Origin: Patescibacteria group bacterium
GTDB lineage: Bacteria; Patescibacteriota; Doudnabacteria; UBA920
NCBI GenBank assembly: GCA_023484515.1
Contig: JAMDAY010000010.1
Span: 5,131-69,130, forward strand
Length of the DNA stretch: 64,000 nt
Direction: 5' to 3'
Part shown: positions 8,190 to 64,000 of the stretch, piece after piece
Layout of the letters: each line of letters begins with the position of its first letter
Numbering within the stretch: the first letter of the stretch is position 1
Made by a program: the position numbers and the translations under genes
The notes under the pieces: model-generated
What the model was told of the DNA's origin: nothing
What the model saw: only the letters and a program-made list of their open reading frames with translations
Databases searched by the model: none

Positions 8190-9059
8190 ATGAGCCCCCA
8201 AGAATTAAAAACTAAAATTTTTCTGGATTCCGGCGACCCGAAAGAGACGCGAGAAGTTTTGGACATGCTGGGTTTTTTGGACGGGCAAACCACCAACCCG
8301 TCCTTGATTGCCAAGAACCCGCAAGTCCAGGCCAGGCTGGCTAAGGGAGAAAAATTCTCCCAGGAAGAAGTTTTAAACTTTTACCGGGCCGTAGTTAAGG
8401 AAGTGTCAGGCCTGATTCCGCAAGGATCCGTATCAATAGAGGTTTATGCCGACGGCAATACTTCGGCTGGACAGATGTTAAACCAAGGCCGGGAATTTTT
8501 TAAATGGATACCGAACGCGCACATTAAATTCCCGACCACTGCGGAAGGGCTGAAAGCCGCGGAAGCGGCGGTAAAAGAAGGAATACGGGTGAACATGACC
8601 TTGGTATTCAGCCAGGAACAGGCAGCAGCGGTTTACGCGGCAACGCGCGGCGCCGGACCGGGCGGCGTATTCGTTTCGCCGTTCATTGGCCGGCTGGATG
8701 ACAGGGGAGAGAACGGCATGGATTTAATTGCCAATATCCGCAAGATGTACCAAAGCGGCGACGGCCACGTGCAGGTTTTGGCAGCCAGCGTAAGATCTTT
8801 AAGCCACTTTACGCAATCCCTGGCGCTTGGCGCGGACATAATTACCGCGCCGCTTAAGGCCATTAAAGAGTGGGCGGAGGCGGGAAAGCCAACTTCTCCC
8901 CAGCCCTCCCTTCAAGAGGGGAGGGAAGGGTTGCGCCCCATACCTTTTCAAGAAATTAATCTAGGCAAACCCTGGCAGGAATATAACATTAAACACGAAC
9001 TGACAGACAAAGGCATAGAAAAATTTGCCGCGGACTGGAACAATTTAATTCAACGGTAA
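8190..9059 (+). CDS. tal: transaldolase (short type) carrying a roughly 35-aa insertion near the C-terminus
   Basis: FLDSGDPKE...TTNPSLIAK...VSPFIGRLDD...HELTDKGIEKFAADWN. The insert EWAEAGKPTSPQPSLQEGREGL... contains the palindrome CCCTCCCTTCAAGAGGGGAGGG at 8904-8925. Confidence 0.9.
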   Translation: MSPQELKTKIFLDSGDPKETREVLDMLGFLDGQTTNPSLIAKNPQVQARLAKGEKFSQEEVLNFYRAVVKEVSGLIPQGSVSIEVYADGNTSAGQMLNQGREFFKWIPNAHIKFPTTAEGLKAAEAAVKEGIRVNMTLVFSQEQAAAVYAATRGAGPGGVFVSPFIGRLDDRGENGMDLIANIRKMYQSGDGHVQVLAASVRSLSHFTQSLALGADIITAPLKAIKEWAEAGKPTSPQPSLQEGREGLRPIPFQEINLGKPWQEYNIKHELTDKGIEKFAADWNNLIQR

Positions 9060-9072
9060 CAGGCGGCAAAAA

Positions 9073-9089
9073 CAAAGGTGCCCTTTGTT
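9073..9089. terminator. putative bidirectional hairpin terminator (CAAAGG-TGC-CCTTTG); T-run follows on the minus strand, TTGGTATTTATT follows on the plus strand
   Basis: Read directly; it lies between the tal stop and the tRNA-Pro 3' end. Confidence 0.4.
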
Positions 9090-9169
9090 GGTATTTATTC
9101 TTTAAGCCGTGCCTGCACTTCCTACTTTGCTGAAGCTTCGTAGGATAAATCGTAGCTTTAGCGAAGAAG

Positions 9170-9243
9170 TGGTCGGGCTGCTGGGAATTGAACCCAGTCT
9201 ACCTGCTCCCAAAGCAGGCGTACTACCGGTATACTACAGCCCG
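9170..9243 (-). tRNA. tRNA-Pro (anticodon TGG), CCA encoded
   Basis: The reverse complement folds manually into a cloverleaf. Acceptor CGGGCTG/CAGCCCG, anticodon stem CCTGC/GCAGG, loop TTTGGGA, T-arm CTGGG-TTCAATT-CCCAG, 74 nt. Confidence 0.9.
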
Positions 9244-9259
9244 TATATAAGTGTATTTT

Positions 9260-9359
9260 AATGAGGGCCGTCCTCTGGGATTATTATTCTTAAGATCGTT
9301 TGGTAATAATCATAGTCTAATAATCTAAAATCTGTTTATCCCAGAGGACGGCTCTCATT
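9260..9359. repeat. MITE-like element copy 1 (diverged): 22-bp terminal inverted repeats AATGAGGGCCGTCCTCTGGGAT / ATCCCAGAGGACGGCTCTCATT around a roughly 56-bp AT-rich core
   Basis: The inverted repeat has one mismatch. The core (CTGGGA..TTCTTAAG..TTTGG..TAATCTAAA..TTATCCCAGAG) is related to the copies at 18086-18179 and 62422-62515. Confidence 0.5.
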
Positions 9360-9404
9360 ACCTTTGAAATTGTTTCCTTCTAATTTTACCATTAAATTTC
9401 CTTT

Positions 9405-9433
9405 TTGACAAAAAACAGCAATTATACTATAAT
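9405..9433 (+). promoter_or_regulatory. consensus sigma70-type promoter: TTGACA, 17-nt spacer, TATAAT
   Basis: The -35 is at 9405-9410 and the -10 at 9428-9433, with a spacer of exactly 17 nt. The next ORF on this strand starts at 10081. Confidence 0.6.
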
Positions 9434-10080
9434 GCTGTTAATATGAAAACTTTTATTTGGGATATTCCCAATAAGGGTATTAAAACAAACCATAACAAAG
9501 AAAGTCAGGAAATGCCCGTAAATTGCTAAAACAGGCTTCAGTAAGCACGAAATTTCGGGAATTTCCTGGCTTTTTGCGTATCTTTTCGCTTAAAAGCCGG
9601 TAAAAGCAGGGAAGGTTGTAACAAGTTTTATAACCTTTCGTCTGCTTTGCACACAACTCTAGAAGCTTGAAACTAAACTGTAGAAATTATAATTCAGCAT
9701 TGGGGATAACCTGATTAATGGATTTAATCTTTAGCAGAAGGTTTTAGGCCTGTGTTGTGTTTTGGCTCTTTTATTGAACTTAATGCTTAGGCCAGCCAAC
9801 TGGGTACAAGCAGCGCTTCGTTTGTGTATTTTAACCTTGTTGGGGAATTTACATAACAGGAAGCAAATTCTTAGTACTGCCCGGTCGATCTTTTGGCGTA
9901 ATAGTCTGGCGTTAAGGTTTCAATAATCATTTCCGCTCCTTGGATGTTTCGGCGATCTCTAGAGCGCCGGAAAGGAAAACTTGGGGAAATGTCCCAGCCT
10001 TGAGTTGGGAAAACTTTAATTAACATTTTCCAAATTGATTGTCTCAATTGAATAATCAATTTTTGGAAAAGGAGTAAAAA

Positions 10081-13000
10081 ATGCAAAATTCTGTAGCAAA
10101 GAAACTCTTTGCTGTAGGTGTTGCGGCTTCCACCGTCCTTTTGGGCTTGGCTCCTTTCGCTGCCAGCGCTGCTGCGCACGCCGAAGGCACCAACGTCAAA
10201 AAGTCTGACGGTACCGTCGGTATGATCATCGGCGGACAGTTCCGCCCCTACACTTCTGCGGGCGCTTTCCTCTCCTACGGCTTCAATTCTTGGGCCGGCG
10301 TAGTGGACGCCAATGCAGACGACTTGGCTTTGCCGACCGGAGCGTTCATTCCTCCGCAAGACGGCAAAATCATCTGCTCTGACCGGGGAACTGACAAAGG
10401 CACCTGCTATTTAATTTCAGGCGCCCAAAAAGCCGGCTTTACCTCTGCGGCCGTTTTCACCGGCCTCGGCTTTAGCTTCTCCAGAGCGCAATATGGCGAT
10501 GTTTCCTGGATGCCCAGCACCAGCAACATTGACAACACCACCGCCTCCCACTTGCCCGGCGTGTTGGTAAACAACAGCGGCACCGTCCAATTGGTCGGTT
10601 CCAACGGATTGCTCGGCATTCCGGACATAGCCACCTTTAACGGTTGGGGCTATTCCTTTGCCGACGTTGTCCCGGCTAATTCCGCTGACAAGGCTATGAC
10701 CCAGACCGGCGTTATGGCTTCTCGCGTAGCCGGCCAACTCTCTCCGACCGCTTTGGCCAATGTGCCCAGCGTAGTTTCCGGTTCCGTCAGCGCCTCCCTG
10801 GCTTCTGACACCCCGGCTGCGGGTTCGTTAGCCGTAAGCTCTACCGCCAGCGTCAACACCGTGGCTACGCTTGCCAAATTCAACTTTTCCGGCAGCGGCA
10901 CCGTTACCCAGTTGCAGGTAAAGAGGATCGGCATTTCTGCCGATACCGATTTGTCAAACGTTTATCTGTTTGACGGTAGTACCCGCTTGACTGACGCGGC
11001 TTCCGTAGGTGCTAACAGCCTGGTAACCTTCAGCAACCCGAACGGCTTGTTTACGGTTTCCGGCAACAAGACCATCTCCGTGGTTGCTGAACTTAAAAAT
11101 AACGCTTCCGCAGGCATTACTGTAGGCGTTCAGTTGACTTCTTTCACTGTGGCCAATGGCACTCCGGCGACAGTTGCCGTTTCCGGCAATTTATTTAGCG
11201 TCACTAACGTCGGCACGGACCTGGCTTATGGCGACTTCGGTTCGGTTACTCCAACCGGCGGCAGCTATGACCCGGCCAAAGATGTGGAAGTGTTCCGCAG
11301 CAACCTGACCGTAAATACGCGCAATATGACTCTTTCCGGTCTTATTTTGCGCCAGATCGGTTCCGCCAACAACTCGGATATTAACAATTTCCGCTTGCGC
11401 ATTGACGGCACCCAGGTTGCCCAGGTCCAAAGCGTGGACAGCAATGGTTATGTTAATTTTTCCTTCGCTCCGGTGACGCTGCAAAGTGGCACCCGCGTAG
11501 TCAGCGTATTGGCTGACGTGGTTGGCGGTTCTTCCAGAACTTTCCAGTTCCAGATCCGCAACAAGGCTGATGTGGTCTTAACCGATTCCAACTATGGTAC
11601 CCAGGTGTCCACCAATGATACCTACCCTGTAGGATCGGCCGCTGCTAATGACATTAATGCCGGCAGCTTGACTATCCAAAAGGCCACCGATTCTCCTTCG
11701 GCTGATGTTACTGCCAATAGCAACGACGTAACTTTGGCCAAATACACCCTGACCGCTTATGGCGAACCCATGAAGGTTGAAACCTTGACTGTTGCCGCTA
11801 CTTCCAGCGACGTGTCCGTTACCTCTTTGCGCAACGGCCGCGTATTGGTTAACGGCGCGCAATACGGTTCCACCGCCACTTTGGCCAGGTGTACCACTTG
11901 TGCAGACAACGATGCCGGCGGTACTGCTTATACTTTGAACTATACGGTCAACCCGGGTACCCCCGTAATCGTGGAAGTTCATGCCGACTTGTATGACAAC
12001 GACGGCGCGAACAACCTGGGCAACGGCGACACAGTGACTGCCTACATTTTGGAAGGCTCTTCCAACGTGCAAAAGACCGTATCTTTGGGCTATGGCAGTT
12101 ACCCGACCAACACTGTAGTGGCCGGTAATTCGCTATCTGTTGTAACTGGCAGCATGACGCTATCTTCCAATAGCAACTATGCCAACCAGAAAATCTCTCT
12201 GCCGCAGACCAGCTATAAGTTAGGTTCTTTTAACTTGGTTGGCAGCAGTTCCGAAGATATCAACATCAGCAGTATTGGTTTGGCCATGGTTGCCTCTACT
12301 ACTTTGACGAGCTTAAATGATGTTCAGATAAAAGTTAATGGCAACATGTTTGGCACCATTAAATCTACAGTCGCTGCGGGAACCGGGCCTAATGAAACCA
12401 TTGGCGCCACTTCCACCTTCTCCGGCAACTACACTTTGCCGAAATTGACGACTGTTCCGGTAGAAGTTTACGGTACAATAAACACCCCGACCTCGGGTTA
12501 TACCAACGACCACTTCCAGGTTCGTTTGTCTGTTGACGGTACCACGGCCAGTTCCGCCACCACGGCCGAGAGCAGTAATAATGGGCAGACCATTAGCATA
12601 GGCTCGGCTTCCATTGTGGCGGCTAAAGACGCGTCTTCTCCGGTTGCTTCGTTAGTAGCAGGCAACCAGACCAAGACCGCCGCAGCCTTTAAGTTTACCA
12701 CCACTGATGATGCGTATACCGTCAAGGAAATTACGTTTACTCCGACCAACGTGACCACTATTACCAGCGTAATCTTAAAGGACGGCAACACTGTTCTTGG
12801 CACCCAGCCGGGCGGCACCGCTACCGTGACTTTCAGCGGCTTGAACATTTCCATTCCGGCCAACTCCTCCAAGGTTTTGACCGTGGACTTGCAGCTTGGC
12901 GCCGTAGGCTATGGCCAAGGCACATCTGGCGACAACGTCCAAATCCAGCTGACCTCCTACAAGAACGTCCCGTCTTCCACGGGTGTGCAGGCCACCAACA

Positions 13001-13587
13001 CGACTGACGTTCCTTCTGGCAACGCCATGTATGTAGTTAAGGCCGTTCCGACCATCACTCCGGTTACTTTGCCGACCGGCTTGTTAGGAGCTTCCGGCCA
13101 AGTCTATACCATCGCCAAGTTCCAGGTTAGCACTGGTGGTACTGGCACTATTGCCTTTACCCACCTGGTGTTTAAGTATAGCACCACGACTGGCGTGGAC
13201 ATTACCACTCCGAAGCTGTATGATGCCAATAGCGTAGAAGTTACCTCCAGCTCCAGCGTAGACAAGGTTAACAGCAGGATTGTTGTTGATCTGGCTGCGG
13301 AAAAGGAAGTTACTGACGGCACCTTCTCCTTGAAGGCTACGCTATCCGATGCTTCCGGTTTCACTACCGGTGACTCGGTTAGCACCTACATGGATGTGGC
13401 AACTAGCTCAGTGACAAAGTCTGCTGACGCGGGAACCGCAACCTCTACAATTGCTAACGCTTTTGTGTGGTCTGATGAGTCCGGCACGGCTGGCACCAGC
13501 GCGACCCACAGCCTGACTTCGGATGACTGGTTTGGCGACTACCTGATCAAGAATCTGCCGACAGACTCGCAGAACTTGGTTAAGTAA
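10081..13587 (+). CDS. large secreted cell-surface (S-layer-like) protein, 1168 aa, Thr/Ser/Gly/Val/Asn-rich
   Basis: AAGGAG RBS lies 8 nt upstream. The N-terminus is a signal peptide, MQNSVAKKLFAVGVAASTVLLGLAPFAASAAAHA. The composition is low-complexity and beta-rich. The gene is GC/C-wobble rich relative to its neighbours, the pattern expected for a highly expressed gene, and is followed by a strong terminator. Confidence 0.85.
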   Translation: MQNSVAKKLFAVGVAASTVLLGLAPFAASAAAHAEGTNVKKSDGTVGMIIGGQFRPYTSAGAFLSYGFNSWAGVVDANADDLALPTGAFIPPQDGKIICSDRGTDKGTCYLISGAQKAGFTSAAVFTGLGFSFSRAQYGDVSWMPSTSNIDNTTASHLPGVLVNNSGTVQLVGSNGLLGIPDIATFNGWGYSFADVVPANSADKAMTQTGVMASRVAGQLSPTALANVPSVVSGSVSASLASDTPAAGSLAVSSTASVNTVATLAKFNFSGSGTVTQLQVKRIGISADTDLSNVYLFDGSTRLTDAASVGANSLVTFSNPNGLFTVSGNKTISVVAELKNNASAGITVGVQLTSFTVANGTPATVAVSGNLFSVTNVGTDLAYGDFGSVTPTGGSYDPAKDVEVFRSNLTVNTRNMTLSGLILRQIGSANNSDINNFRLRIDGTQVAQVQSVDSNGYVNFSFAPVTLQSGTRVVSVLADVVGGSSRTFQFQIRNKADVVLTDSNYGTQVSTNDTYPVGSAAANDINAGSLTIQKATDSPSADVTANSNDVTLAKYTLTAYGEPMKVETLTVAATSSDVSVTSLRNGRVLVNGAQYGSTATLARCTTCADNDAGGTAYTLNYTVNPGTPVIVEVHADLYDNDGANNLGNGDTVTAYILEGSSNVQKTVSLGYGSYPTNTVVAGNSLSVVTGSMTLSSNSNYANQKISLPQTSYKLGSFNLVGSSSEDINISSIGLAMVASTTLTSLNDVQIKVNGNMFGTIKSTVAAGTGPNETIGATSTFSGNYTLPKLTTVPVEVYGTINTPTSGYTNDHFQVRLSVDGTTASSATTAESSNNGQTISIGSASIVAAKDASSPVASLVAGNQTKTAAAFKFTTTDDAYTVKEITFTPTNVTTITSVILKDGNTVLGTQPGGTATVTFSGLNISIPANSSKVLTVDLQLGAVGYGQGTSGDNVQIQLTSYKNVPSSTGVQATNTTDVPSGNAMYVVKAVPTITPVTLPTGLLGASGQVYTIAKFQVSTGGTGTIAFTHLVFKYSTTTGVDITTPKLYDANSVEVTSSSSVDKVNSRIVVDLAAEKEVTDGTFSLKATLSDASGFTTGDSVSTYMDVATSSVTKSADAGTATSTIANAFVWSDESGTAGTSATHSLTSDDWFGDYLIKNLPTDSQNLVK

Positions 13588-13641
13588 ACTTTACCTTTTA
13601 GGTATCGTTTCCTGACTACGAATAAAGTTTAGGACAAAGTT

Positions 13642-13677
13642 CCCCGCCCTTTGCAAGCAAAGGGCGGGGCTTTGTTA
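13642..13677 (+). terminator. rho-independent terminator (CCCCGCCCTTT-GCAAGC-AAAGGGCGGGG followed by CTTTGTT)
   Basis: Read directly, 55 nt after the stop of the large surface-protein gene. Confidence 0.75.
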
Positions 13678-13870
13678 TAAAAATTCCATAAAATTTTTTT
13701 GTTATTGATTCTAAAGAAAAATTTTTGTGTCATTGCGAGTGCATCCGAAGCAATCTGTTGAATCGTAAGATCGCCACGGCGCCAAAGATAAGGCCCTTTG
13801 GCGCCTCGGCACGTCGGTCGCGACCGATACGTGCCTCGAGATGGCATATGAGCAGTTACCGGATATGAAC

Positions 13871-13899
13871 TTGAAAAAGATTAAAATTTTTAGTAATAT
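13871..13899 (+). promoter_or_regulatory. putative promoter TTGAAA-17-TAATAT; the transcript would be leaderless or near-leaderless for the 13906 ORF
   Basis: Read directly; the -10 ends 6 nt before the ATG. Confidence 0.35.
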
Positions 13900-13905
13900 C
13901 ATGAT

Positions 13906-14601
13906 ATGCGTAAAAAAATTATCATAATAATAACCATAATAATCGCCATGGCGGCAGCGGCCGGCGGATACTGGTATTTCCAAAAAAACCGGCACAATAG
14001 CAAGGCGCCGGGCGCGAAATCTTTGGCCGACATCCAAAGGAATTTGACTGTTGAACAGGAAAAAGCGGTAAACGGCCGGATTCAAAAAGCCGAAGATTAC
14101 TTAAAAACCTTAAAACCGGAACAGAAAAATTACAATTACGAACAGGCCAATACTTACGAATACCTTGGCCAGCAATATTACGCGCTGGGACAGATGCAAA
14201 AATCCAAGGACATGTATGAGAAAGCGTTGGCCTTGGAGCCTGACGACGAATCAATGCAGGTTGGACTGGCCACTACTTTAACCGAAGCGGGGGACAAGGC
14301 CGGAGCGAGGCAGTTTTTGGAAAAGGCGCTGCAAAGCAATCCCAAGGATTCCGACTTGTGGCTGCGCTATATAGATTTGCGGCAGACTATGGGCGCCACG
14401 GCGCAGGACCTTGGCGATTTGTACAGCCAGGCTTTGGAAAAAACGAATAATTATATAGATGTTTTAACCAAAGACGCCGCCTTCCAGGAGCAACAGGGGA
14501 ATACTGCCGCGGCTATTTCTTTGTGGCAGCAAGCGTCCAAACAGCAGCCGGACAACCAGGCATATAAGGAAGAAATTGGCAGGCTGCAGAAACTGCAATA
14601 G
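13906..14601 (+). CDS. membrane-anchored TPR-repeat protein
   Basis: N-terminal hydrophobic helix KKIIIIITIIIAMAAAAGGYWYF, followed by tetratricopeptide-like repeats (YEYLGQQYYALGQMQKSKDMYEKALALEPDD...). Confidence 0.75.
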   Translation: MRKKIIIIITIIIAMAAAAGGYWYFQKNRHNSKAPGAKSLADIQRNLTVEQEKAVNGRIQKAEDYLKTLKPEQKNYNYEQANTYEYLGQQYYALGQMQKSKDMYEKALALEPDDESMQVGLATTLTEAGDKAGARQFLEKALQSNPKDSDLWLRYIDLRQTMGATAQDLGDLYSQALEKTNNYIDVLTKDAAFQEQQGNTAAAISLWQQASKQQPDNQAYKEEIGRLQKLQ

Positions 14602-14626
14602 TAGGGAAGGCTTGCCGTCAAAATAA

Positions 14627-14656
14627 TTGACACTGCGGCTAAGCAAGGATTATACT
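14627..14656 (+). promoter_or_regulatory. putative promoter TTGACA-18-TATACT
   Basis: Read directly. The annotated ORF track start at 14627 (TTG) is the -35 itself, so the real start of the downstream ORF is more likely the ATG at 14681. Confidence 0.45.
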
Positions 14657-14680
14657 GGAATAGCCATTAAACTGACTTTT

Positions 14681-14941: not shown

Positions 14942-14953
14942 ATTTTTAATGTT

Positions 14954-15572: not shown

Positions 15573-15578
15573 CATATT

Positions 15579-15637
15579 AAAATTCCGCCGAAATTTTACT
15601 TTTAATCTATCCATGGTAAAATTTCGGCGGAATTTTA
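15579..15637. terminator. strong hairpin: 21-bp perfect inverted repeat AAAATTCCGCCGAAATTTTAC / GTAAAATTTCGGCGGAATTTT with an 17-nt loop
   Basis: Read directly, immediately 3' of hepT. Confidence 0.65.
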
Positions 15638-15676
15638 AATGTTTGCTATAATATATAAAACCATTAACTTTTTACC

Positions 15677-17902
15677 ATGAAAACCAAGCCAGTTCTTTAT
15701 ATTTTCTTTATTTTAATCTGCTTTAGTTTGCTCACTCCGTTTGTCGTGGACAAAAATTACCTTTTTCCCTTTATTTTGCCCCGCGCCCTGTTTTTGCGCA
15801 TAGTCCTGGACATTGCCCTGCCCTTTTATTTATACCTCATATTAGCCAAAAAGGAATACCGCCCAAATTTAAAAAATCCGTTAAACCTTTCAGTTCTGGT
15901 TTTTTTGGGAGTTTACTTTATTACTTCCTTTACCGGCGTAGACGCGTTGCGCAGCGTGTGGGGCAACATTGAACGCATGGGCGGGGCGTGGTATATGATG
16001 CATCTGGTAATGCTGTATTTTTACGTGCTGCTTTTAGCCCAGGCCAGCGGCAGGCTGCTGCTGCGGTTTTTAAAAATTTTCCTGTGGGTGGCCAATGTTA
16101 CCGTATTTTACGGGTTGTGGGTATACTTGGGCCTGCCGGGTTTTTACGCGGACCCTTCGCTGCCTTCCCGCGTGTCTTCCAGTTTCGGCAATCCCATCTT
16201 TTTTGCCAGTTTCCTGGTGCTGCCGCTGTTTCTGTCCGTGTTTTTCGCCATCCAGGAAGAATCCAGGGCCTGGAAGGCAATATACGGGGTAATGGCGTTA
16301 TTGCAACTGTTCGGCATTTACCAGAGCGCCACGCGCGGCGCGTTTGTGGGCCTGGCGGCCGGCATATTTTTGGCGGCCGTGATGTTTTTGTTCAAGGCGG
16401 AATCGCGGCGCCTGCGCAATTGGGGAGTTGCCGCGGTCGGAGGCATAGTCCTGGTAGCCGGCGCGCTGTTCCTGTTCGGCGGCAAGCTGCCGTCCGGTTC
16501 GTTTTTATACCGCATTACCCATTTAAAGGACAGCAATTCCGAAGCCCGCCTGATCCAGTGGAAGACCGCCCTTCAAGGATACAAAGACAAGCCTGTTTTG
16601 GGCGTGGGCCCGGAAAATTACTATATCATCGCCAACAAATATTACAATCCCGAACTGAACAAGTACGATCCTTCCTGGTTTGACAAGCCGCATAACTATC
16701 TTTTGGAAATTTTAGTGACCACCGGCGCGGTAGGATTTGCCGCCTATCTGGCCATGCTGGCGTTTTTTGCCTGGAGCCTGTATAAGGCCTTTAAGGCCGG
16801 GTTGCTTTCGTGGCTGGAAACCTGCGTGCTTTTAGCCGGCATGCTGGCTTACCAGATCCAGAACTTGTTCGTGTTTGATACCATTTCCGCTTCCGTGGCC
16901 TTTTTCATTTATATGGGTTTTGGCGCGTATTTGTGGCATGAGTCGGAATTGGAAAAAAAACCGGCCCACAAAAAAATTATGTCCGGCCTTAGCCCCGCTT
17001 TCGTGAACGCGGCCGCAGGCGTGTCTGCGGTTGCCGTAATTTATGCCATTTACTTGACAAGTATTGTGCCGGGCCGGGTGGCAAAGAACATTAATTACGG
17101 CTACGCTTATTCCGGCATAGACCCGGTAAAGGCGGAACAATATTTTGAAGCCGCGCGCAACCAGCCGTTCGTGTTTGATCCGGGAGAATTGGGAGTGCGC
17201 TATGCGGACTTTGCCGCTAACGTGGCCCAAAACCCGCCGCAGGGGTTGTCCAAGGAAGAGATTGGCAAGATTACCGACCATGCCATAGCTTCTTTGGAGG
17301 ACGCAAATGCGCGCGTGCCCAATTATCCCATCTTTTGGTATAAATTGGCCCAGGCTTACAATACCAAAAGCCTGCTGGACAACGGGCCCGTGGACCCAAG
17401 GGCCGACCAGGCCGCGGCCAGGGCCGTGGAACTGGCACCCAAGCGGCCGGAAACCATAAGCTACCTTATCCAGGTAAAGGCCGCAGAGGGACAGACGGAT
17501 AAAGCAGTGTCATTGTCGGAGCAGTTGGCCCAATTGTACCCGTGGAATTCCGATTACGCCTGGCGCCTGGCAGTGGTGTACGATTTTGCCAAGCAGGACG
17601 AAAAAGCGGTTGCAACTGCGCAACAGGCGCTGGCCGCAGGCTACCAAATAAAGCAAACCAGTGACATCCAGTGGCTGGTAAAATATTATTCCGATAATAA
17701 AAATTATGCCGCTGCAATCGCATTATACCAGGCAGGGTTAAAAAATGACCCGACCAATGTCCAGCTTTTGAGCGGTTTGGCCCTGGCTTATGCCGACTCG
17801 GGCGACAAACAAAAGGCCATAGAGACCGCCAGGCAAATTGTTGTAATCCAGCCGGCGGCCAAGGACGACGTGGACAAATTCATCCAGGGCTTAAGCCAGT
17901 AA
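15677..17902 (+). CDS. Wzy_C (O-antigen ligase / PglL-WsaB-like oligosaccharyltransferase family) polytopic membrane protein with a C-terminal TPR domain
   Basis: Multiple TM helices. IYQSATRGAFVGLAAG and ARLIQWKTALQGYKDKPVLGVGPENY match Wzy_C signatures. The C-terminal roughly 250 aa carry TPR-like repeats. Confidence 0.8.
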   Translation: MKTKPVLYIFFILICFSLLTPFVVDKNYLFPFILPRALFLRIVLDIALPFYLYLILAKKEYRPNLKNPLNLSVLVFLGVYFITSFTGVDALRSVWGNIERMGGAWYMMHLVMLYFYVLLLAQASGRLLLRFLKIFLWVANVTVFYGLWVYLGLPGFYADPSLPSRVSSSFGNPIFFASFLVLPLFLSVFFAIQEESRAWKAIYGVMALLQLFGIYQSATRGAFVGLAAGIFLAAVMFLFKAESRRLRNWGVAAVGGIVLVAGALFLFGGKLPSGSFLYRITHLKDSNSEARLIQWKTALQGYKDKPVLGVGPENYYIIANKYYNPELNKYDPSWFDKPHNYLLEILVTTGAVGFAAYLAMLAFFAWSLYKAFKAGLLSWLETCVLLAGMLAYQIQNLFVFDTISASVAFFIYMGFGAYLWHESELEKKPAHKKIMSGLSPAFVNAAAGVSAVAVIYAIYLTSIVPGRVAKNINYGYAYSGIDPVKAEQYFEAARNQPFVFDPGELGVRYADFAANVAQNPPQGLSKEEIGKITDHAIASLEDANARVPNYPIFWYKLAQAYNTKSLLDNGPVDPRADQAAARAVELAPKRPETISYLIQVKAAEGQTDKAVSLSEQLAQLYPWNSDYAWRLAVVYDFAKQDEKAVATAQQALAAGYQIKQTSDIQWLVKYYSDNKNYAAAIALYQAGLKNDPTNVQLLSGLALAYADSGDKQKAIETARQIVVIQPAAKDDVDKFIQGLSQ

Positions 17903-56485: not shown

Positions 56486-56517
56486 AGGTTATAAAAATTA
56501 CAAATATCAAATATCAA

Positions 56518-57726
56518 ATGGATTTTTCTTACAGCGCCATAACCAAAAACGGGCAGAGGGAGTCGGGAACTATTCAGGCCGCTTCGGCTGCCGCAGCCGG
56601 CCACTTGCTTAAGGAGCAAGGGCTTTTGCCTACGCGCGTGGAAGAATCCCGCAAAAGTTCTGTCGTAAGTTTTTTCAAAAACGTTTCCACCATTTCATTG
56701 GATGAAAAAATCAATTTCGTGGAAAACTTGAGCGTAATGCTTAAGGCCGGCATATCCATTAGCCGCGGATTGCAAATTTTAGTCAAGCAAACCAAGAATG
56801 CGCGCTACAAGGGGATACTGGCGGATATTGCAAACCAGGTGGAATCGGGTAAAAGCCTGGGCGAGGCCATGGCCAAATACCCGGCCGTGTTTTCCAATAT
56901 TTTCGTCAGCATGGTCAAGGTCGGCGAACTTTCCGGCAATTTGGACAAAAGCCTGGAATACTTGAGCGTCCAGTTGCAGCGGGACGCTGATTTGCGTTCC
57001 AAGACCAAAGGGGCCATGATCTACCCTTCGGTCATTGTGGCGGCAATTATTATTGTAGGGGTATTAATGTCAATTTTCGTGCTGCCCAGCCTCATTTCCG
57101 TGTTTAAGGACTTTTCTGCAAACCTGCCGCTGTCCACCAGAATTGTCATTAGTGCCGTGGATTTTATGAGCAATAACGCCTTTTTGGTTATTGGGGGGCT
57201 GCTTGCCTTGGTCGGAGCGGCTGTTGCCGCGCTGCGGACGCCTGGAGGCAAGCGGGCTTTTGACATTTTCCTGCTGCATTTTATGGTAATTAATAGTATA
57301 ATAAAAAAGATAAATTTGGCGCGCTTCGCCAGAATTTTAAGTTCGCTGCTCAAAAGCGGCGTTCCCATAGTCCAAAGCCTGGAAGTGGCCGGCAATTCCC
57401 TGGGTAACATTCCTTACCGCGAGCTGGTGGCGGAAACGGCCGTATCGGTCAAGCTGGGAAAGCCTTTGACCGAGGCGCTAAATAAGCGTCCGGACTTGTT
57501 TCCCATACTGGTGGTGCAGATGATCCAGGTGGGGGAGGAAAGCGGGACCATGGAGAACATTTTGGAGCAACTTGCCGGACATTACGAAGAAGAGGTGGAC
57601 GACGTCCTGAAAAATTTGTCTTCCGTAATTGAGCCGCTTTTGCTGTTATTTATCGGCGGCGTAGTCGGCTTGCTGGCAGTGGCGCTAATCAGCCCCATTT
57701 ACAGCATTAGCCAGACAATTTCGTAA
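56518..57726 (+). CDS. pilC: type IV pilus platform protein PilC (GspF family)
   Basis: Two GspF repeats and three TM segments. The C-terminus EPLLLLFIGGVVGLLAVALISPIY is typical. Confidence 0.9.
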   Translation: MDFSYSAITKNGQRESGTIQAASAAAAGHLLKEQGLLPTRVEESRKSSVVSFFKNVSTISLDEKINFVENLSVMLKAGISISRGLQILVKQTKNARYKGILADIANQVESGKSLGEAMAKYPAVFSNIFVSMVKVGELSGNLDKSLEYLSVQLQRDADLRSKTKGAMIYPSVIVAAIIIVGVLMSIFVLPSLISVFKDFSANLPLSTRIVISAVDFMSNNAFLVIGGLLALVGAAVAALRTPGGKRAFDIFLLHFMVINSIIKKINLARFARILSSLLKSGVPIVQSLEVAGNSLGNIPYRELVAETAVSVKLGKPLTEALNKRPDLFPILVVQMIQVGEESGTMENILEQLAGHYEEEVDDVLKNLSSVIEPLLLLFIGGVVGLLAVALISPIYSISQTIS

Positions 57727-57812
57727 AATTTCAAATTTCAAATAACAAATTACAAATAAGATCCAAATTTTAAAATCCTAATGCAATCTGAAGAAAGCTT
57801 GAGTATAGGGTA

Positions 57813-58883
57813 TTGAAATTTAAACTCATGTTCAACTTATTCCTAAAACCCCAAAAAGCGTTTGGCCTGGACATTAGCGGCAGCTCGCTGAAAGTGATGC
57901 AGTTGGAAAATAAAAAATCGGAAGTGTCGGTAGACGGCTACACGGACACCCCTTTGCCCAAGGGGTTAATGACTAACGATGTCATTTTGGACGGCAAGAC
58001 TTTCGGTTACCTGGTCAGGCAAAGCCTGCAGAAGCCGCTTTTCGGGAAAATAGACAGGCATTACGTGGTGGCCAGCCTGCCGGAGTCCAAGTCTTTCGTG
58101 CGCGTCATCCAGATCCCGAAAATGAGCGACGGCGAGGCGGAAAATGCCATTCCAGTGGAGGCGGAAAGCTTTATCCCGCTGCCCATTGACCAGGTTTATC
58201 TGGATTGGCAAAAATTGGGGGAGACGGAAGGCAAAATGAACATTTTAATTATTGCCTCGCCCAAGGAATTCGTGGACAAATACCTGGAAATTTTGGACCA
58301 GGCCGGTTTGAAACCCATAGCCCTGGAGGTGGAGTCGCAAAGCTGCCGGCGCGCCCTGCTGGAGCCGGCAAGCAAGGAAACATTGCTGATGATTGACTTA
58401 GACGCTTACCGGACCAGCATGGCAATGGTGGAGGAAGGGAATTTGCAGTTTACTTCCACGGTGCCCATTGCCGGCGACTCTTTTACGGAAAGCATTGCCA
58501 AGTCTTTGGGGGTTTCTTCGGCCAAAGCCGAAGAGATAAAAAAGAAAGTCGGAATAGCCAATACCGTCCAGTATCCCAATATTAAAACCGCGTTATTGCC
58601 CACCCTGAACAATTTAAGCGCGGAAATAAAAAGCATATTAAAATTCCATGGCGAGCACTCGGGCCGCAAAGTGGACAAAATTTTATTGTCCGGCGGCAGC
58701 GCCAAACTGAAAAATTTGGCGGAGTTTTTAGCCCCGCAGCTTAACGATTTTTCCGGCATCCCCGTGGAAACGGGCAATCCCTGGCTGAATTTGAAAACCT
58801 TGCGCTCAAAGCCTTTGGAAGCCTATGACAGCCTGGGATACGTAACCGCCATCGGGCTGGCAATTAGGGGGATGGACGCATGA
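57813..58883 (+). CDS. pilM: type IV pilus assembly protein PilM (actin-like ATPase fold)
   Basis: FGLDISGSSLKVMQLE and the overall length and position match PilM. Confidence 0.8.
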   Translation: MKFKLMFNLFLKPQKAFGLDISGSSLKVMQLENKKSEVSVDGYTDTPLPKGLMTNDVILDGKTFGYLVRQSLQKPLFGKIDRHYVVASLPESKSFVRVIQIPKMSDGEAENAIPVEAESFIPLPIDQVYLDWQKLGETEGKMNILIIASPKEFVDKYLEILDQAGLKPIALEVESQSCRRALLEPASKETLLMIDLDAYRTSMAMVEEGNLQFTSTVPIAGDSFTESIAKSLGVSSAKAEEIKKKVGIANTVQYPNIKTALLPTLNNLSAEIKSILKFHGEHSGRKVDKILLSGGSAKLKNLAEFLAPQLNDFSGIPVETGNPWLNLKTLRSKPLEAYDSLGYVTAIGLAIRGMDA

Positions 58884-59437
58884 ACAAAACCATCAATTTG
58901 CTGCCGAAGTCCAGGCAGCAGGAATTAAAATACGAGTTGGTCCTGCACGGCCTGGTTATGGCCATATATTTGTCCATTGCCAGTTTTGCCCTGGTATTTT
59001 TGGTGCAAGGCGCAGCCAGGCTTTACCTGTTGCAGCAGGACAAGGTGGTGCAGGCGGAAATTGAACAGTTAAAGAAAGAAGAGAACAAAGGCGCTTACGC
59101 GGGGGTCAAGGCGCAAATCCAAACCCTCAACAATGTCATCACCGACTACAAAAATTTGGCGGAAAATTCCCCCAAATGGTCCCAAGTGCTTAAGGCGTTC
59201 GCGCCCCTGCCGCCGCCCGGGATCAAAATAAACACCATGGTCATAAACGTGTCCAAGAAAACCATAACCATTACCGGCACCAGCCTCACCCGCGAACTGG
59301 TCATTAGGCTTTATGACATTATCAGGCAGCACGACGGGGAATTTTACAATATAGATTATCCGCTGGAAAACGTGGTCAAGCCGGCCAATATTACCTTCCA
59401 TTTTACTTTTAATATCAGGGACAGCTTAATTAAATAA
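58880..59437 (+). CDS. pilN: PilN-like bitopic pilus assembly protein
   Basis: NLLPKSRQQE then a single TM; translationally coupled to pilM (ATGA overlap). Confidence 0.65.
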   Translation: MNKTINLLPKSRQQELKYELVLHGLVMAIYLSIASFALVFLVQGAARLYLLQQDKVVQAEIEQLKKEENKGAYAGVKAQIQTLNNVITDYKNLAENSPKWSQVLKAFAPLPPPGIKINTMVINVSKKTITITGTSLTRELVIRLYDIIRQHDGEFYNIDYPLENVVKPANITFHFTFNIRDSLIK

Positions 59438-59442
59438 TTCCC

Positions 59443-59997
59443 ATGGGGACGATTTCCACAAAAAATAAAATTTTCATAGCCTTGGCCGTCTGGCTGATAG
59501 CCTGCGCCAGCATGTTCGGGTATTTTTTCAATATTTTAAGCCATTCCAACGGCATCCTCCTGAGTGATATTAAAAGCAAGAACAAGGAAAAAGAAGTGCT
59601 GGCAAACGAACAAGACAGTTATTTGACGGCAAAGAAAGACGTGGAAACTTTGAGGGGAAAGGCAGTCCAGCCTGAAGATTTTTTCAGCAAAGATGTCGCC
59701 CTGGTTGAGGAAATTAGGACTTTGGAAAATTTGGGCGAGCGGCTGGGGGTAAAGTTTTCCCTGTCAGGCATTAGCGGCACGGTGGGGAGCGCCCCCAAGG
59801 CGCCCACGGTTTCCAGCATTGCCTCCGTCCCTTACAGCCTTAGCATAAGCGGGGACTTTACCTCGGCTACGGCATTTATTGAATCACTGGAGCATTTAAG
59901 CTTTGTCACTTATCCCCGGGACCTTTCCGTGACTTCCGGGGGGTCCGGCACGGTTAACGTTTCCTTAACCGCAAATTTTTATTTGCAGAAACCTTAA
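59443..59997 (+). CDS. pilO: PilO-like bitopic pilus assembly protein
   Basis: N-terminal TM and a coiled-coil segment; called from position in the operon. Confidence 0.55.
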   Translation: MGTISTKNKIFIALAVWLIACASMFGYFFNILSHSNGILLSDIKSKNKEKEVLANEQDSYLTAKKDVETLRGKAVQPEDFFSKDVALVEEIRTLENLGERLGVKFSLSGISGTVGSAPKAPTVSSIASVPYSLSISGDFTSATAFIESLEHLSFVTYPRDLSVTSGGSGTVNVSLTANFYLQKP

Positions 59998-60002
59998 GGC
60001 TT

Positions 60003-60320
60003 ATGGAACTTTTGGAAAAATTAAAAAGTTTGCGGGTTAGGCCGTCGGGTATGACCCAAAATTACGCCGGTTTTTTGCTGGGCGCGCTGCTGCTGGTTTT
60101 ACTGGCGGCGGAAGGGATGGTAATAAAGCGCAGCATTGTTGACATAATGTCCATTGGCCAGATAGAAGGGCAAGTTAACAGGATCCAGGTGGTCAGGGTA
60201 AATTTTGACGGTTACAATTACGACCTGCAGAGGATCAAGGGCTCGGAAACCTACAGCCCGTCCCTAAAACCTTTACCTGACCCCTTTAACGCGGCGGCGG
60301 ACGTTACGGGCGGGGAATAG
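60003..60320 (+). CDS. hypothetical small membrane protein (possibly PilP-like)
   Basis: Single TM LLGALLLVLLAA; last gene before the terminator. Confidence 0.45.
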   Translation: MELLEKLKSLRVRPSGMTQNYAGFLLGALLLVLLAAEGMVIKRSIVDIMSIGQIEGQVNRIQVVRVNFDGYNYDLQRIKGSETYSPSLKPLPDPFNAAADVTGGE

Positions 60321-60345
60321 CTTTTCCGCCAGCATGAGCGCTTAT

Positions 60346-60384
60346 GGGCGCCTTCCCGTTGCGGGAAGGCGCTTGCCTTTTTGC
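60346..60384 (+). terminator. rho-independent terminator (GGGCGCCTTCCCG-TTG-CGGGAAGGCGC followed by TTGCCTTTTTG)
   Basis: Read directly, at the end of the pil operon. Confidence 0.65.
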
Positions 60385-60570
60385 CTCCCATTGGGGTCTG
60401 CTCGGAATTCTTAAATTTCGCCTTAAAAGCGCATTCGGCAACAGACCCATTGGAAAAATTCAGGCCGGTTGGATATAATATAGGTAGTTTTACATCCAGC
60501 TTAATCGGATATAGCCCTGCCGCCGGCCCCGGACCGCAGGGCTGCGGGGATTCTTCCCGCCACATTTTTT

Positions 60571-60647
60571 GACCTCGTAGCTCATTTGGATAGAGCGCTT
60601 GGCTTCGAACCAAGAGGCAGCAGGTTCAAATCCTGCCGAGGTCACCA
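60571..60647 (+). tRNA. tRNA-Arg (anticodon TCG), CCA encoded
   Basis: Manual cloverleaf: acceptor GACCTCG/CGAGGTC, D-arm GCTC-ATTTGGATA-GAGC, anticodon stem CTTGG/CCAAG with loop CTTCGAA, T-arm GCAGG-TTCAAAT-CCTGC. 77 nt. Confidence 0.9.
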
Positions 60648-60739
60648 AATGCGGCGGGGTGAAGCCTTGCCGGGCGCACTGCGAATCGCTTCCCGTCTTC
60701 ATCGGGCCGGATATGTGCCGCGGCAATAATTTCTAAAAT

Positions 60740-61186
60740 TTGGCTAATATGGTTTATATTATTATCCCGTTCCTCGTTTGCCTCTTGACTCATTTGGTCA
60801 AATTTTTAATCAGGCTTTATCGTGGCTGCGGCTTTTCCAAGCAAAGTTTTGCCTGGTCGTTCTTTTGGGCTGGCGGCCCGCCGAGCGTGCATTTGGCAAC
60901 CTTAAGCTCCATCGCCTATTTGTTTTATCTAAAGCTGGGGGTGGGCCCCTTATTCGCCCTAACGATCATTTTGGCCGCGTTTGTTATTTATGGGTTTGTG
61001 GAAGACAGAAAGCGCCAGTTGCTTTTTGAAGGATATTTAAAAAAAAGCCAAGATCCGGCAATCCGGGCAATAGCCAGGGACGGAAAGCTGCTGGATTTTA
61101 GCGGCCACAGCATTGTTGATGTATTATTAGGCGCGGCTTTTGGTTTAGTATTTACGATTTTAATGACGCAGGTTATGCGGCTGTAA
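60740..61186 (+). CDS. divergent PAP2-family membrane protein (DUF212-like)
   Basis: GGPPSVHLATLSSIAY and DFSGHSIVDVLLGAAFG match the divergent-PAP2 His-containing motifs. Confidence 0.65.
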   Translation: MANMVYIIIPFLVCLLTHLVKFLIRLYRGCGFSKQSFAWSFFWAGGPPSVHLATLSSIAYLFYLKLGVGPLFALTIILAAFVIYGFVEDRKRQLLFEGYLKKSQDPAIRAIARDGKLLDFSGHSIVDVLLGAAFGLVFTILMTQVMRL

Positions 61187-61257
61187 TTCAACAGGAAATT
61201 TAGTTGTAAATACACAAAAGAGAAAAAGGCACCAGACAAGCTGATACCTTTTTCCCT

Positions 61258-61333
61258 TGGTGGGTCGGGTGGGGATCGAACCCACGACCGTTTGCTTAAG
61301 AGGCAACTGCTCTACCAACTGAGCTACCGACCC
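61258..61333 (-). tRNA. tRNA-Lys (anticodon CTT), CCA encoded
   Basis: The reverse complement GGGTCGGTAGCTCAGTTGGTAGAGCAGTTGCCTCTTAAGCAAACGGTCGTGGGTTCGATCCCCACCCGACCCACCA gives a clean cloverleaf. The anticodon loop is CTCTTAA. Confidence 0.9.
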
Positions 61334-61396
61334 GTTTATTCAAATTTTTTCATTACATCTGATATTTTACAATAAATTGAAAATTTTATCAAGCGC

Positions 61397-62374
61397 ATGA
61401 TTTCAATTTTTCTCGGGCCTGACGATTTTACCAAGAAGGAATATATAAAATCCCTGGCTGAAAAGCAGGGGGCGGTTTTGGAGGTTTTTAGGGACGCGGA
61501 AAACGCGCCCAGGGCGGACAAGCTGGCAGAGCGGGATTTGTTCGCCAAAAAAAAGATCCTGGTGCTGGAAAATTTGCTGTCCAAATACGCGGCGGACGAA
61601 AAAATGGCGGAAAAGCTGGCTGGCTGCCCGAATGACATTATTTTCTTGGAAGAAAAATTGGACAAGCGCAGCAGCGCCAACAAAAAAATTCTCGCAAATA
61701 AATTTGTCACAACTAAAGAATTTGCCTTGCCCCACGGCAAGAATCTGGACAAATGGATAATGGAAAAGGTTAAATTTTACCAAGGTAAAATTAATCCCAA
61801 GGCTGCGGACCTGCTGGCGCGAAAACTTGGCCGCGACGAGGCGCTGGAAACCAAATTTGGCGGCAAGGTGGCGGACGTTAAAGAAGTTTACAACCTCTGG
61901 CAGGCGGACAATGAGGTTAAAAAATTACTGGCTTTAAGCGGAGGTGGGGAAATTTTGGAAAATGATATAGAAGAATTGGTGGTGGAAAACGGGGAAGTGG
62001 ATGTATTTAAGATTATCAACGCCTTGGCTGACAACAAAAAAAACTTGGCTTTGGGCCTGGTGCAGGATTTTTTGGATTCGGGCAGCGGCGACGAAAAGGC
62101 CAAAATTATCCAGCTTAACGCCCTCATTTCCGAACAGTTCCGCAACATTTTGGCAGTGCAAGATTTATTGTCCAGGAAAGTCATGGACGAAGAGATTCTA
62201 AGCCGGACTTCCTGGAAAAGCGGCAGGCTTTATGTTATGAAAAAGAACGCGGTTAAGTTTAGCCAGGTTAAGGCAAAAGAGCTGCTTGCGAAATTGGAAC
62301 ATCTGGACGAAGAGTTAAAAACCTCGGCCACGCCGCCGCGGGTGCTGCTGGACCTGATACTGGCACAGATGTGA
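61397..62374 (+). CDS. holA: DNA polymerase III subunit delta
   Basis: N-terminal IFLGPDDFTKKEYIKSL. The C-terminal region LNALISEQFRNILAVQDL...VKFSQVKAKELLAKLEHLDEELKT parallels the Bacillus HolA C-terminal domain. Confidence 0.7.
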   Translation: MISIFLGPDDFTKKEYIKSLAEKQGAVLEVFRDAENAPRADKLAERDLFAKKKILVLENLLSKYAADEKMAEKLAGCPNDIIFLEEKLDKRSSANKKILANKFVTTKEFALPHGKNLDKWIMEKVKFYQGKINPKAADLLARKLGRDEALETKFGGKVADVKEVYNLWQADNEVKKLLALSGGGEILENDIEELVVENGEVDVFKIINALADNKKNLALGLVQDFLDSGSGDEKAKIIQLNALISEQFRNILAVQDLLSRKVMDEEILSRTSWKSGRLYVMKKNAVKFSQVKAKELLAKLEHLDEELKTSATPPRVLLDLILAQM

Positions 62375-62421
62375 TTGACGTTATAAAACATGAAGGGTGC
62401 TTTCCGGGAATATATGACAGT

Positions 62422-62515
62422 GATGACGCACATCTGGGATAAGCGGTCTTTAGATTGCCGGATAAGAATTATCATCAACCAAACTTAAGGAAAATTGTTC
62501 CAGATGTGCGTTATC
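62422..62515. repeat. MITE-like element copy 3 (inverted relative to copy 2)
   Basis: Terminal repeats GATGACGCACATCTGGGA / TTCCAGATGTGCGTTATC. The core is about 90% identical to the reverse complement of 18086-18179. It lies between the convergent holA and typA ends. Confidence 0.7.
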
Positions 62516-62580
62516 TCCCAAGGGAAACTTTAAGTCCCTATCCAATAAAAAACCAGCCATTGGCTGGTTTTTACTTAAAA

Positions 62581-64000
62581 TTATGCGTTGGTTTTTTCCC
62601 CGCGCCGGATTTTTTTGCGCTCAATGGAGGAAAGAATTTTCTTGCGGATGCGTACGGACAAAGGGGTAACTTCCACCAGTTCGTCGGGGCCAATGTATTC
62701 CAGAGCAAGATCCAAACCCATTTCCCGGGGAGGGGTTAAAATAAGGGCTTCGTCAGCGCCTTTTGAGCGCATGTTGGAAAGCTTTTTGGTTTTGCAGACA
62801 TTTATTTCCAAATCGGTATCCAAGGCGTTTTTACCAACCACCATGCCCTCGTACACTTCCACAGCCGGGCCGATAAATAAGGCGCCCCGTTCCTGGGCGT
62901 TGTTAAGCCCGTAAGCGTTGGAAACGCCGCTTTCCGCGGAAATTAAGGAGCCATGCTCGTTGCCCCGCAAGTCTATATCGTGCACCGGCTTATAAGAATT
63001 GAAGATATTATTTATAATTACCGTGCCCCTGGTGCGGGTTAAGAGCAGGTTTTTCAGGCCAATCAGCCCGCGGGTGGGGATTAAATATTCCGCATGGATT
63101 TCCCCGGAGGCGTCGGAATCCATGTGCAATAATTGCCCGCCCCGTTTTCCCAATTCCTCGATAATTACTCCCTGGTGTTCGCTGGGGACGTCAATGGTTA
63201 CGTCTTCGTAAGGCTCAAGTTTTTTTCCGTTTTCCTCGTGGTAGATTACCTCAGGCTGGCTCACTTGCAGTTCAAACCCTTCGCGCCTCATCGTTTCAAC
63301 TAAAACCGCCAAATGCAGTTCGCCGCGTCCGGAAACCAAAAACGAATCACTGCCTTGTTCCAGGCCTTCCACTTTCAAGGCCACGTTGGTTTCCAGTTCC
63401 TTAATAAGGCGGTCACGCAAATTGCGGGAAGTGACGAATTTTCCTTCGCGCCCGGCAAACGGGGAAGTGTTGACGCCAAAAGTCATCTTAATGGTCGGCG
63501 GCTCAATTTCCACGGGCGGCAAAGTTTGGGGATTTTGCGGATCGGTTAAAACGTCGCCAATATGGATGTCGTCAAAGCCGCCGATTGCTACGATATCACC
63601 AGCCACGGCTTCCGGCACATCAACTTGCTTTAAACCTTCGTACATCTGTAAAGAGGTAACGCGGGAAACGGTTCCTGTAGGGGAGGGTCTTGACCCTCCC
63701 TTATCAACGGGCGACTCAAGAGCCGTCCCTGCATTAGCCTTAATTAGCATGGCGTTTTGCGCCTGGCTGATTTTTCCGGCCTGGATTTTGCCAATTCCCA
63801 ACCGGCCTTTGTAATTGTCGTAAGCCAAAGCCAAAACCTGTAAGGCAAAAGGGTCGTCCGGCTGCACTTCGGGAGCGGGAATGTGTTGGATAATGGCTTC
63901 AAACAGGGGAGAGACGTCGGGGGATTTAAGATTTAAGATTGAAGATTTAAGATTTTCCAAATCATCATCAGCCAAACCGCGCACACCGCTGGCGTAAATA
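62581..64000 (-). CDS. typA: translational GTPase TypA/BipA, C-terminal two-thirds (5' end beyond window)
   Basis: Collinear with BipA from PLFEAIIQHIPAP through VNTSPFAGREGKFVTSRNLRDRL and SGRGELHLAVLVETMRREGFEL to the C-terminal ELVEVTP. The frame is open to the window edge. It contains two in-frame inserts, described in findings. Confidence 0.9.
   Translation of the reverse strand, partial: IYASGVRGLADDDLENLKSSILNLKSPDVSPLFEAIIQHIPAPEVQPDDPFALQVLALAYDNYKGRLGIGKIQAGKISQAQNAMLIKANAGTALESPVDKGGSRPSPTGTVSRVTSLQMYEGLKQVDVPEAVAGDIVAIGGFDDIHIGDVLTDPQNPQTLPPVEIEPPTIKMTFGVNTSPFAGREGKFVTSRNLRDRLIKELETNVALKVEGLEQGSDSFLVSGRGELHLAVLVETMRREGFELQVSQPEVIYHEENGKKLEPYEDVTIDVPSEHQGVIIEELGKRGGQLLHMDSDASGEIHAEYLIPTRGLIGLKNLLLTRTRGTVIINNIFNSYKPVHDIDLRGNEHGSLISAESGVSNAYGLNNAQERGALFIGPAVEVYEGMVVGKNALDTDLEINVCKTKKLSNMRSKGADEALILTPPREMGLDLALEYIGPDELVEVTPLSVRIRKKILSSIERKKIRRGEKTNA

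Follow-up and report, generated by a model that had tools for sequence, protein, structure and literature searches.

We analysed a 64,000-nt window of contig JAMDAY010000010.1, from a Patescibacterium of the Doudnabacteria, in which four housekeeping genes contain GC-rich or palindromic DNA within their reading frames. The transketolase gene, tkt (2165–4063, forward strand), was assigned by its Pfam domains and its similarity to human TKT (6rjb, E = 4e-188), and glpX, for a class II fructose-1,6-bisphosphatase (4787–5752, forward strand), by Pfam PF03320 (E = 8e-122). The tal gene (8190–9059, forward strand; Pfam PF00923) encodes a short, FSA/TalC-like transaldolase with a subfamily-specific C-terminal segment. 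The typA/bipA gene (62581–64000, reverse strand; E = 5e-192 to the BipA structure 8ewh) is represented by its C-terminal 472 codons, and its N-terminus lies past the window end. Together with L084, a 9.4-kb extension, the window makes up the approximately 74 kb of this genome that were read. We consider it likely that the segments in these genes derive from small non-autonomous palindromic repeats of two kinds and are remnants that differ in age.

The typA insert (63676–63726, reverse strand) adds a net 51 nt, or 17 codons, in frame to domain II and encodes the peptide TALESPVDKGGSRPSPT. The distance from GIGK[IVL] to [ST]xLxMY is 42 aa in the window TypA versus 25–26 aa in the 99 other homologs that match this pattern, and comparison with structure 8ewh shows the same 17 additional residues. 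The extra segment and its palindrome, both described in a first-pass annotation of this DNA, are thus present, with the palindrome GGGAGGGTCTTGACCCTCCC at 63681–63700. The tetranucleotide GTAG directly adjoins the hairpin at 63677–63680, giving GTAG+GGGAGGGTCTTGACCCTCCC on the forward strand, which reads GTAGGGGAGGGTCTTGACCCTCCC. This is an intact copy of a GTAG-tagged repetitive extragenic palindromic (REP) sequence, GTAG-GGGAGGG-TCTTGA-CCCTCCC (63677–63700, forward strand, antisense to typA), with a stem of 7–9 bp and a loop of 2–6 nt. An 8-nt spacer at 63701–63708, read directly as GTTGATAA on the coding strand, separates it from a degenerate inverted partner, GCAG-GGACGGC-TCTTGA-GTCGCCC (63709–63732, reverse strand). 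The partner agrees with the intact copy at 17 of 24 positions and with the family variants GTAGGGGCGGGTCTTGACCCGCCC and GTAGGGGCGAGTCTTGACTCGCCC at 19 of 24, and it has kept the TCTTGA loop. The arrangement is that of REP doublets forming hairpins (REPINs), 24 + 8 + 24 nt, inverted, with outward-facing tags, although the partner is decayed. Since this other half matches family variants at 19 of 24 positions and faces the intact copy across an 8-nt spacer, the typA insert is, by its sequence, a REP doublet with one decayed copy. As judged from the homologs, it is specific to this lineage.

The same REP occurs widely in metagenomes. A scan with the 20-nt palindrome alone, without the tag, gave exact matches on at least 120 contigs (at least 137 hits), both totals being lower bounds. 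In 124 of the 137 matches listed (91%), the next four nucleotides are CTAC. The window has the same tag, which formed no part of the query. Among the contigs listed, 17 carry at least two copies, mostly inverted. In L136 and L149, inverted pairs flank an open reading frame (ORF) of 147–150 aa with a Y1_Tnp domain (PF01797), homologs of which are labelled 'REP element-mobilizing transposase RayT' by the Joint Genome Institute. Within this family the TCTTGA loop is constant, and the stems covary (GGGAGGG, GGAGGGG, GGGCGGG, GGAGCGG, GGGCGAG). Furthermore, the TypA of L206 contains, at a different site, an intact in-frame doublet of the same layout, GTAG-GGGCGGATATCATCCGCCC...GGGAAGATAATATCTTCCC-CTAC. 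Another position in TypA, after PEVIYH (alignment A2, columns 490–550), carries inserts of 20–40 aa in 9 of 25 Patescibacteria TypAs. Most of these begin with Y after a conserved YH or YR and have variable cores; those checked, in L207 and L208, are repeats of the triplex-motif type described below for tal.

The glpX element was found by a scan for GTAG-tagged hairpins and lies outside the finding of the first-pass annotation. It is a REP-like hairpin at 5023–5044 on the reverse strand, GTAG-TT-AGCCGAT-TT-ATCGGCT, with a stem of 7 bp and a loop of 2 nt, and it accounts for 8 extra codons. The region 5012–5047 encodes WGKTADKSANYN, and the site is 14 aa long in the window versus 6–7 aa in seven relatives. 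The same REP is present in the glpX gene of L024; the site is occupied by a GTAG...CTAC doublet in L001 and by a different repeat in L004 and L065. In both typA and glpX, the tag adjoins a short GC-rich hairpin whose dimensions fall within the ranges for GTAG REPs, a stem of 5–13 bp and a loop of 2–20 nt, given in PMC3733652. Both copies are intragenic and so depart from the extragenic location that is a criterion for GTAG REPs.

The tal gene presents a different situation. Its segment of 40 aa (8874–8993, forward strand) is absent from classical short transaldolases, and the window Tal is about 40 residues longer there than Bacillus subtilis Tal (3R8R). This had been read as an insertion of roughly 35 residues, which is not borne out: the segment is exactly 39 aa in 69 of 90 close homologs and also occurs in Nitrospirota and Thermodesulfobacteriota loci (64–66% identity), so that it is standard in the subfamily, not an insert specific to this genome, and extra only in comparison with classical short Tal. 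The possibility that orthologs commonly contain the segments therefore holds for the 39-aa Tal segment and fails for its palindromic core and for the typA and tkt inserts. The core, the palindrome CCCTCCCTTCAAGAGGGGAGGG, lies at 8904–8925 inside tal, as had been noted, and is confined to a variable loop of about 13 aa within the segment. For the tal and typA palindrome patterns alike, one copy is present in the window versus 0.00–0.01 expected from shuffles.

On the reverse strand, the tal palindrome is part of a larger repeat at 8891–8932, consisting of a C stem CCCTCCCC(T), the loop TCTTGA, a G stem AGGGAGGG, CTG, and a second G run GGGAGAAG. Read as CTTCCCTCCCC tcttga AGGGAGGG ctg GGGAGAAG, it fits a relaxed version of the triplex-motif layout. 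A fuller element is found in the tal loop of L001, where an outer stem CAACCTCTCCCCG / CGGGAGGGGTTG surrounds CCCTCCCCTCATGAGGGGAGGG and a small hairpin GGCC-GAA-GGCC, with a folding energy of −43 kcal/mol (z = −4.6). The window element is 86% identical to it over 43 nt, and the second hairpin and the 3' outer arm are gone from the window copy, a net deletion of 15 nt (40 versus 45 aa). A run of 31 nt of the L001 element recurs identically, oppositely oriented, in an in-frame insert of the L028 SIS-type pgi gene, and in the pgi copy of L080 the small second hairpin is compensated, GCCC-TTC-GGGC. Homologous hairpins with perfect stems of differing sequence occupy the same tal loop in L001, L004, L036, L053, L065, and L028, and the tal-loop hairpins of relatives are translated in different frames, as PSP, LS, or PP. 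When the typA, tal, and tkt inserts were compared by BLAST with 1.3 Mb of related loci, relatives were found for the tal insert only. The strict TM_ECO consensus, CCCTCNCCC N3-6 GGGNGAGGG N3 GGGNGAGGG, which defines a class of intrastrand triplex motifs rich in G/C (Holder et al. 2015, PMC4666352), has two occurrences in L019, one of them inside tkt, and is also found in the tal loop of L209. It is also present in Nitrospirota loci, where the hairpins at those positions all scored as not intragenic. On its layout, the tal element is a decayed G/C-rich triplex-motif repeat of the TM_ECO-like kind.

Both modelled inserts, in typA and tal, map to low-confidence loops, as a proposed check on structures had envisaged. 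In the AlphaFold 2 model of TypA, the insert, residues 252–268, has a predicted local distance difference test (pLDDT) score below 50 and lies between the well-modelled β strands 243–247 and 270–274. The Tal model has a mean pLDDT of 84.8, and its only internal stretch below 50, likewise flanked by well-modelled elements, is residues 238–245, QPSLQEGR, within the peptide PQPSLQEGR.

Two further observations concern the tal loop and its subfamily. In other Doudnabacteria, this loop is made up of tandem repeats of 7 nt (L006:10670-10786, L007:10655-10765, L008:10287-10403, L010:7370-7486, and L024:7552-7668); the unit varies by species (CCAAATT, TTTCCAA, GTGACAA, CAGAATT, CAAACAG), and the segment is still 37–39 aa. 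The subfamily with the 39-aa segment is common to Patescibacteria, Nitrospirota, Thermodesulfovibrionales, and Thermodesulfobacteriota (L009–L083), with 64–66% identity, a distribution across phyla that hints at horizontal transfer of tal.

The tkt insert is GC-rich and 17 codons long, AEKSVSRNAAQSRVRRA (2411–2461, forward strand), at a recurrent insertion site; it is unclassified. The stretch that contains it is 34 aa in the window; it measures 16–18 aa across 62 cluster representatives and 17 aa across 43 genomes, and human TKT lacks the insert as well. L004 and L019 have inserts at this site too, that of L019 being GC-rich, and the boundary (K/R)RA(L/I)(E/D)P is common to all three. The L004 insert is a twin-hairpin repeat, CTCCAACCACCCC-hairpin-A-CCCCTCCTTGAAAAGGAGGGG-AGACTGCAG, of which a second copy (~58 nt) is found in glpX of the same genome; the two are read in different frames, to give TPTTPSRQGGTPLLEKEGRLQ and SNHPGPSGHPSLKRRGELQ. 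Related elements are thus translated in frames that differ from gene to gene, so that it is the nucleotide element that recurs and not the peptide. The shared boundary suggests a site that was probably opened once and later remodelled, and the window insert is probably an old, decayed element.

How might such elements have come to lie within these genes? REPs are moved as single-stranded DNA hairpins by the RayT transposase (HUH/Y1), which recognises the hairpin and its GTAG tag. On this established REP/RAYT biology, RayT would have acted on the single-stranded hairpin and tag of the elements now seen in typA and glpX. We suggest that repeats that are normally intergenic landed here in permissive surface loops of housekeeping enzymes and could persist where the reading frame was kept and no stop codon lay inside. 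Thus, typA would hold a GTAG REP doublet with one intact and one decayed inverted copy, glpX one small GTAG REP, and tal, in its variable loop, a decayed intrastrand triplex motif repeat made of a C-rich/G-rich hairpin and a third homopyrimidine/homopurine run; tkt would hold an old insert, rich in GC, at a hot spot occupied by recognisable copies in relatives. The elements are identifiable as such, lie in frame, are absent from most orthologs, and are dispersed to further genes and other genomes. Most likely, the additional peptides are mere passengers, disordered loops without a function of their own.

The elements add to a known kind, since intragenic REPs and Rickettsia palindromic elements (RPEs) have already been described in other bacteria. 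What the typA and glpX copies share with GTAG REPs is, besides the hairpin and tag, the outward-facing tags of the typA doublet and the occurrence of an identical REP beside RayT genes elsewhere; they differ in that neither a RayT gene nor a second copy was seen in the 74 kb and in that the typA partner is decayed. TM_ECO overlaps the BoxC repeats of Escherichia coli. The tal element has the TM_ECO order of C-rich stem, short loop, complementary G-rich stem, about 3 nt, and second G-rich run, and there are strict copies, one at L209's tal loop and another within the tkt gene of L019. Unlike TM_ECO, which in E. coli was reported as always intergenic, the elements here are in frame inside genes, and the relatives' copies add the small GGCC-GAA-GGCC hairpin and a complementary outer arm. 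Like RPEs, they are palindromic repeats placed in frame in tolerated loops of conserved genes, with a host protein that is apparently functional. RPE-1 measures 100–150 bp; the present elements measure 22–56 nt, are GTAG-tagged or of the triplex-motif type, and come from a different phylum. The first-pass annotation had likened them to RPEs, and this stands as far as small palindromic repeats in frame in housekeeping genes are concerned; it does not extend to a single family, to RPE size, or to the CGTC tag, no CGTC tetranucleotide being found beside the window hairpins. RPE-4 and RPE-6 are CGTC-tagged according to PMC3733652. The same paper catalogues REPs of the GTAG and CGTC types within known genes, mostly as dimers encoding 20–30 aa (Di Nocera et al. 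2013), and its available part does not name the Patescibacteria among the host phyla. Our search of the literature for links between Patescibacteria and REP-type repeats or miniature inverted-repeat transposable elements found nothing relevant.

A single RPE-like family, with the tal and typA elements and perhaps the tkt insert as copies of CCCTCCC-TCAAGA-GGGAGGG, had been proposed from the 7-nt arms and the TCAAGA/TCTTGA centre that tal and typA have in common. We regard this as very improbable. The C arm comes first in tal and the G arm first in typA, each on both strands, so that neither palindrome can be an inverted copy of the other. Furthermore, typA has a GTAG tag and tal has none, and the two inserts show no BLAST similarity past the arms. 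Relatives of the tal element have a third pyrimidine run and TCATGA or TTATGA centres, and the shared TCAAGA appears to be coincidental. An assembly or binning artefact is extremely improbable. Nothing specific points to one, although GC-rich hairpins can trouble assemblers and some long-read-assembled relatives have split genes at element sites. P0121, a 633-aa protein annotated as 'translational GTPase TypA', matches the window TypA at 100% identity, and the identical protein is encoded by the NCBI metagenome-assembled genome and by two separate Logan assemblies from different runs; the Tal, 100% identical to P0001, is likewise recorded in NCBI as well as in Logan, from two contigs. Every insert is, moreover, in frame.

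Several results weigh against remnants of mobile repeats. Neither the window nor L084 gave a RayT match in a tblastn search with three Y1/RayT proteins, and the readable 74 kb contain no other copy of either palindrome. The window tkt insert has, as the first-pass annotation observed, no obvious palindrome; its fold is not significant (z = −1.8), and the BLAST search of the related loci detected no similarity to any element. The strict TM_ECO consensus is not in the window, and the tal copy fails it. Element-bearing tal loops are often of native length (40 aa in the window, 39 aa in P0020 and P0027), which simple insertion does not predict. The native length of the loops in P0020, in P0027 (L209:3170-3247), and in the window (8874–8993), each with a triplex-motif element, suggests replacement rather than plain insertion. 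Finally, the perfect stems at the tal site, seen in seven species despite a protein divergence of about 25–30% and with paired positions changing together, could also reflect selection for the hairpin.

Native-length loops would also suit a local origin, in which replication template switching or slippage (quasi-palindrome mutagenesis) created the hairpins on the spot, within tolerant loops and without a mobile element. Two similar motifs of native-like sequence, GCAGGGACGG and ACAGGAACCG, border the typA insert, whose arms are similar to the native GGGACGG, and the 7-nt tandem repeats in relatives' tal loops point to slippage. A purely local origin is argued against by the 24-nt typA sequence, including GTAG, that is identical to a REP flanking RayT genes on unrelated contigs. 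In addition, 31 nt of the tal-type element recur in another genome's pgi, and the tal loop of L209 contains the strict TM_ECO consensus. We therefore think a local origin unlikely. Selection on the hairpins, for a role in mRNA or DNA (pausing, stability, or processing), or on a beneficial protein loop, would explain the perfect tal-site stems and the stem covariation in the REP family, although independent insertions of different family variants are also expected to give covariation. The same elements turn up in many unrelated genes, in either orientation and in various frames, and the window copies in tal and in the left half of the typA doublet are decaying, which argues against a protein-level or regulatory function. 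Furthermore, the typA insert is found in none of the relatives examined, and the peptides are predicted to be disordered; a functional role is, in our judgement, improbable. Remnants of two kinds of repeats, REP in typA and glpX and triplex-motif in tal, remain the reading that we prefer.

If this reading is right, the host range of RayT-type REPs is extended, and repeats of the TM_ECO type, strictly intergenic in the E. coli report, can survive within genes. Low-complexity PSP...GEG/GRG peptides, which have no protein-level meaning, are explained once they are read as REP or triplex-motif DNA. Note that such inserts lengthen and locally scramble conserved marker proteins of Patescibacteria, namely TypA, Tal, Tkt, and GlpX.

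Are the repeats of this clade preferentially intragenic? In the sampled loci, elements recur at a small number of loops, in Tal, Tkt, GlpX, Pgi, Fba, and TypA; they are read in several frames and sometimes take the place of the native loop at unchanged length. In a rough tally made without proper gene calls, Patescibacteria loci fetched around tal (550 kb) had 31 of 50 pyrimidine/purine hairpins well within long ORFs; for Nitrospirota and Thermodesulfobacteriota DNA (787 kb), the intragenic share was 2 of 17. A relaxed hairpin scan of the window found no additional pyrimidine/purine hairpin within any of its genes. It is possible, though doubtful, that in the clade related to Doudnabacteria REP and triplex-motif repeats are fixed mostly inside housekeeping genes and not between them. 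Such a bias, if true, would suggest targeted or replacement-type insertion, or use of the hairpins, beyond chance survival, and the elements would be a systematic source of protein loop diversity in ultra-small bacteria. The hot spots would then provide a natural map of permissive loops in central enzymes, and the clade a case study of selfish DNA in genomes that have almost no intergenic space.

Other candidates were considered and set aside. The window has 14 GC-rich hairpins with stems of at least 7 bp versus 1.3 in shuffles; most of them lie within conserved codons or are terminators and so are not inserts. Likewise, 41 GC-rich patches are mostly ordinary coding sequence, and a GTAG hairpin at 10251, in a gene for a 1168-aa secreted protein, aligns with native sequence in orthologs. 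In four related genomes, a gene for a 215-aa RayT-like Y1_Tnp protein stands directly 3' of tal with a CTGGAAGAGGGGACACCTCTTCCAG hairpin on both sides (L001:11040-11687, L007:10891-11568, L065:10881-11741, and L079:11191-11859), and the window has a tRNA there instead. This transposase was rejected as the mobiliser, as its flanking hairpins are unrelated to the intragenic elements. An Rfam scan of the window and four related loci returned tRNAs only.

Among relatives, MFD03726.bin.1.241 has fba and zwf each called as two pieces (L004:7309-8476, L207:6693-8177), with hairpin repeats at the fba break (L004 7601–7664); these splits could be true frameshifts or homopolymer errors of a long-read assembly. 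Genes with 23S_rRNA_IVP/bAvd domains occur among the relatives' sugar-phosphate genes (L001:6249-6605, L003:6843-7253, and L003:9376-9738). Elsewhere in the window, the gap preceding the ORF at 15677 contains, at 15577–15638, a perfect inverted repeat of 23 nt whose arms are 16 nt apart, TTAAAATTCCGCCGAAATTTTAC...GTAAAATTTCGGCGGAATTTTAA. Upstream of tkt, the intergenic gaps that precede the ORFs at 923 and 1662 each have a perfect AT-rich palindrome, AGTGAAAAATTTGTACAA|TTGTACAAATTTTTCACT at 832–867 and a related 42-nt version at 1601–1642; the two look like paired operator sites.

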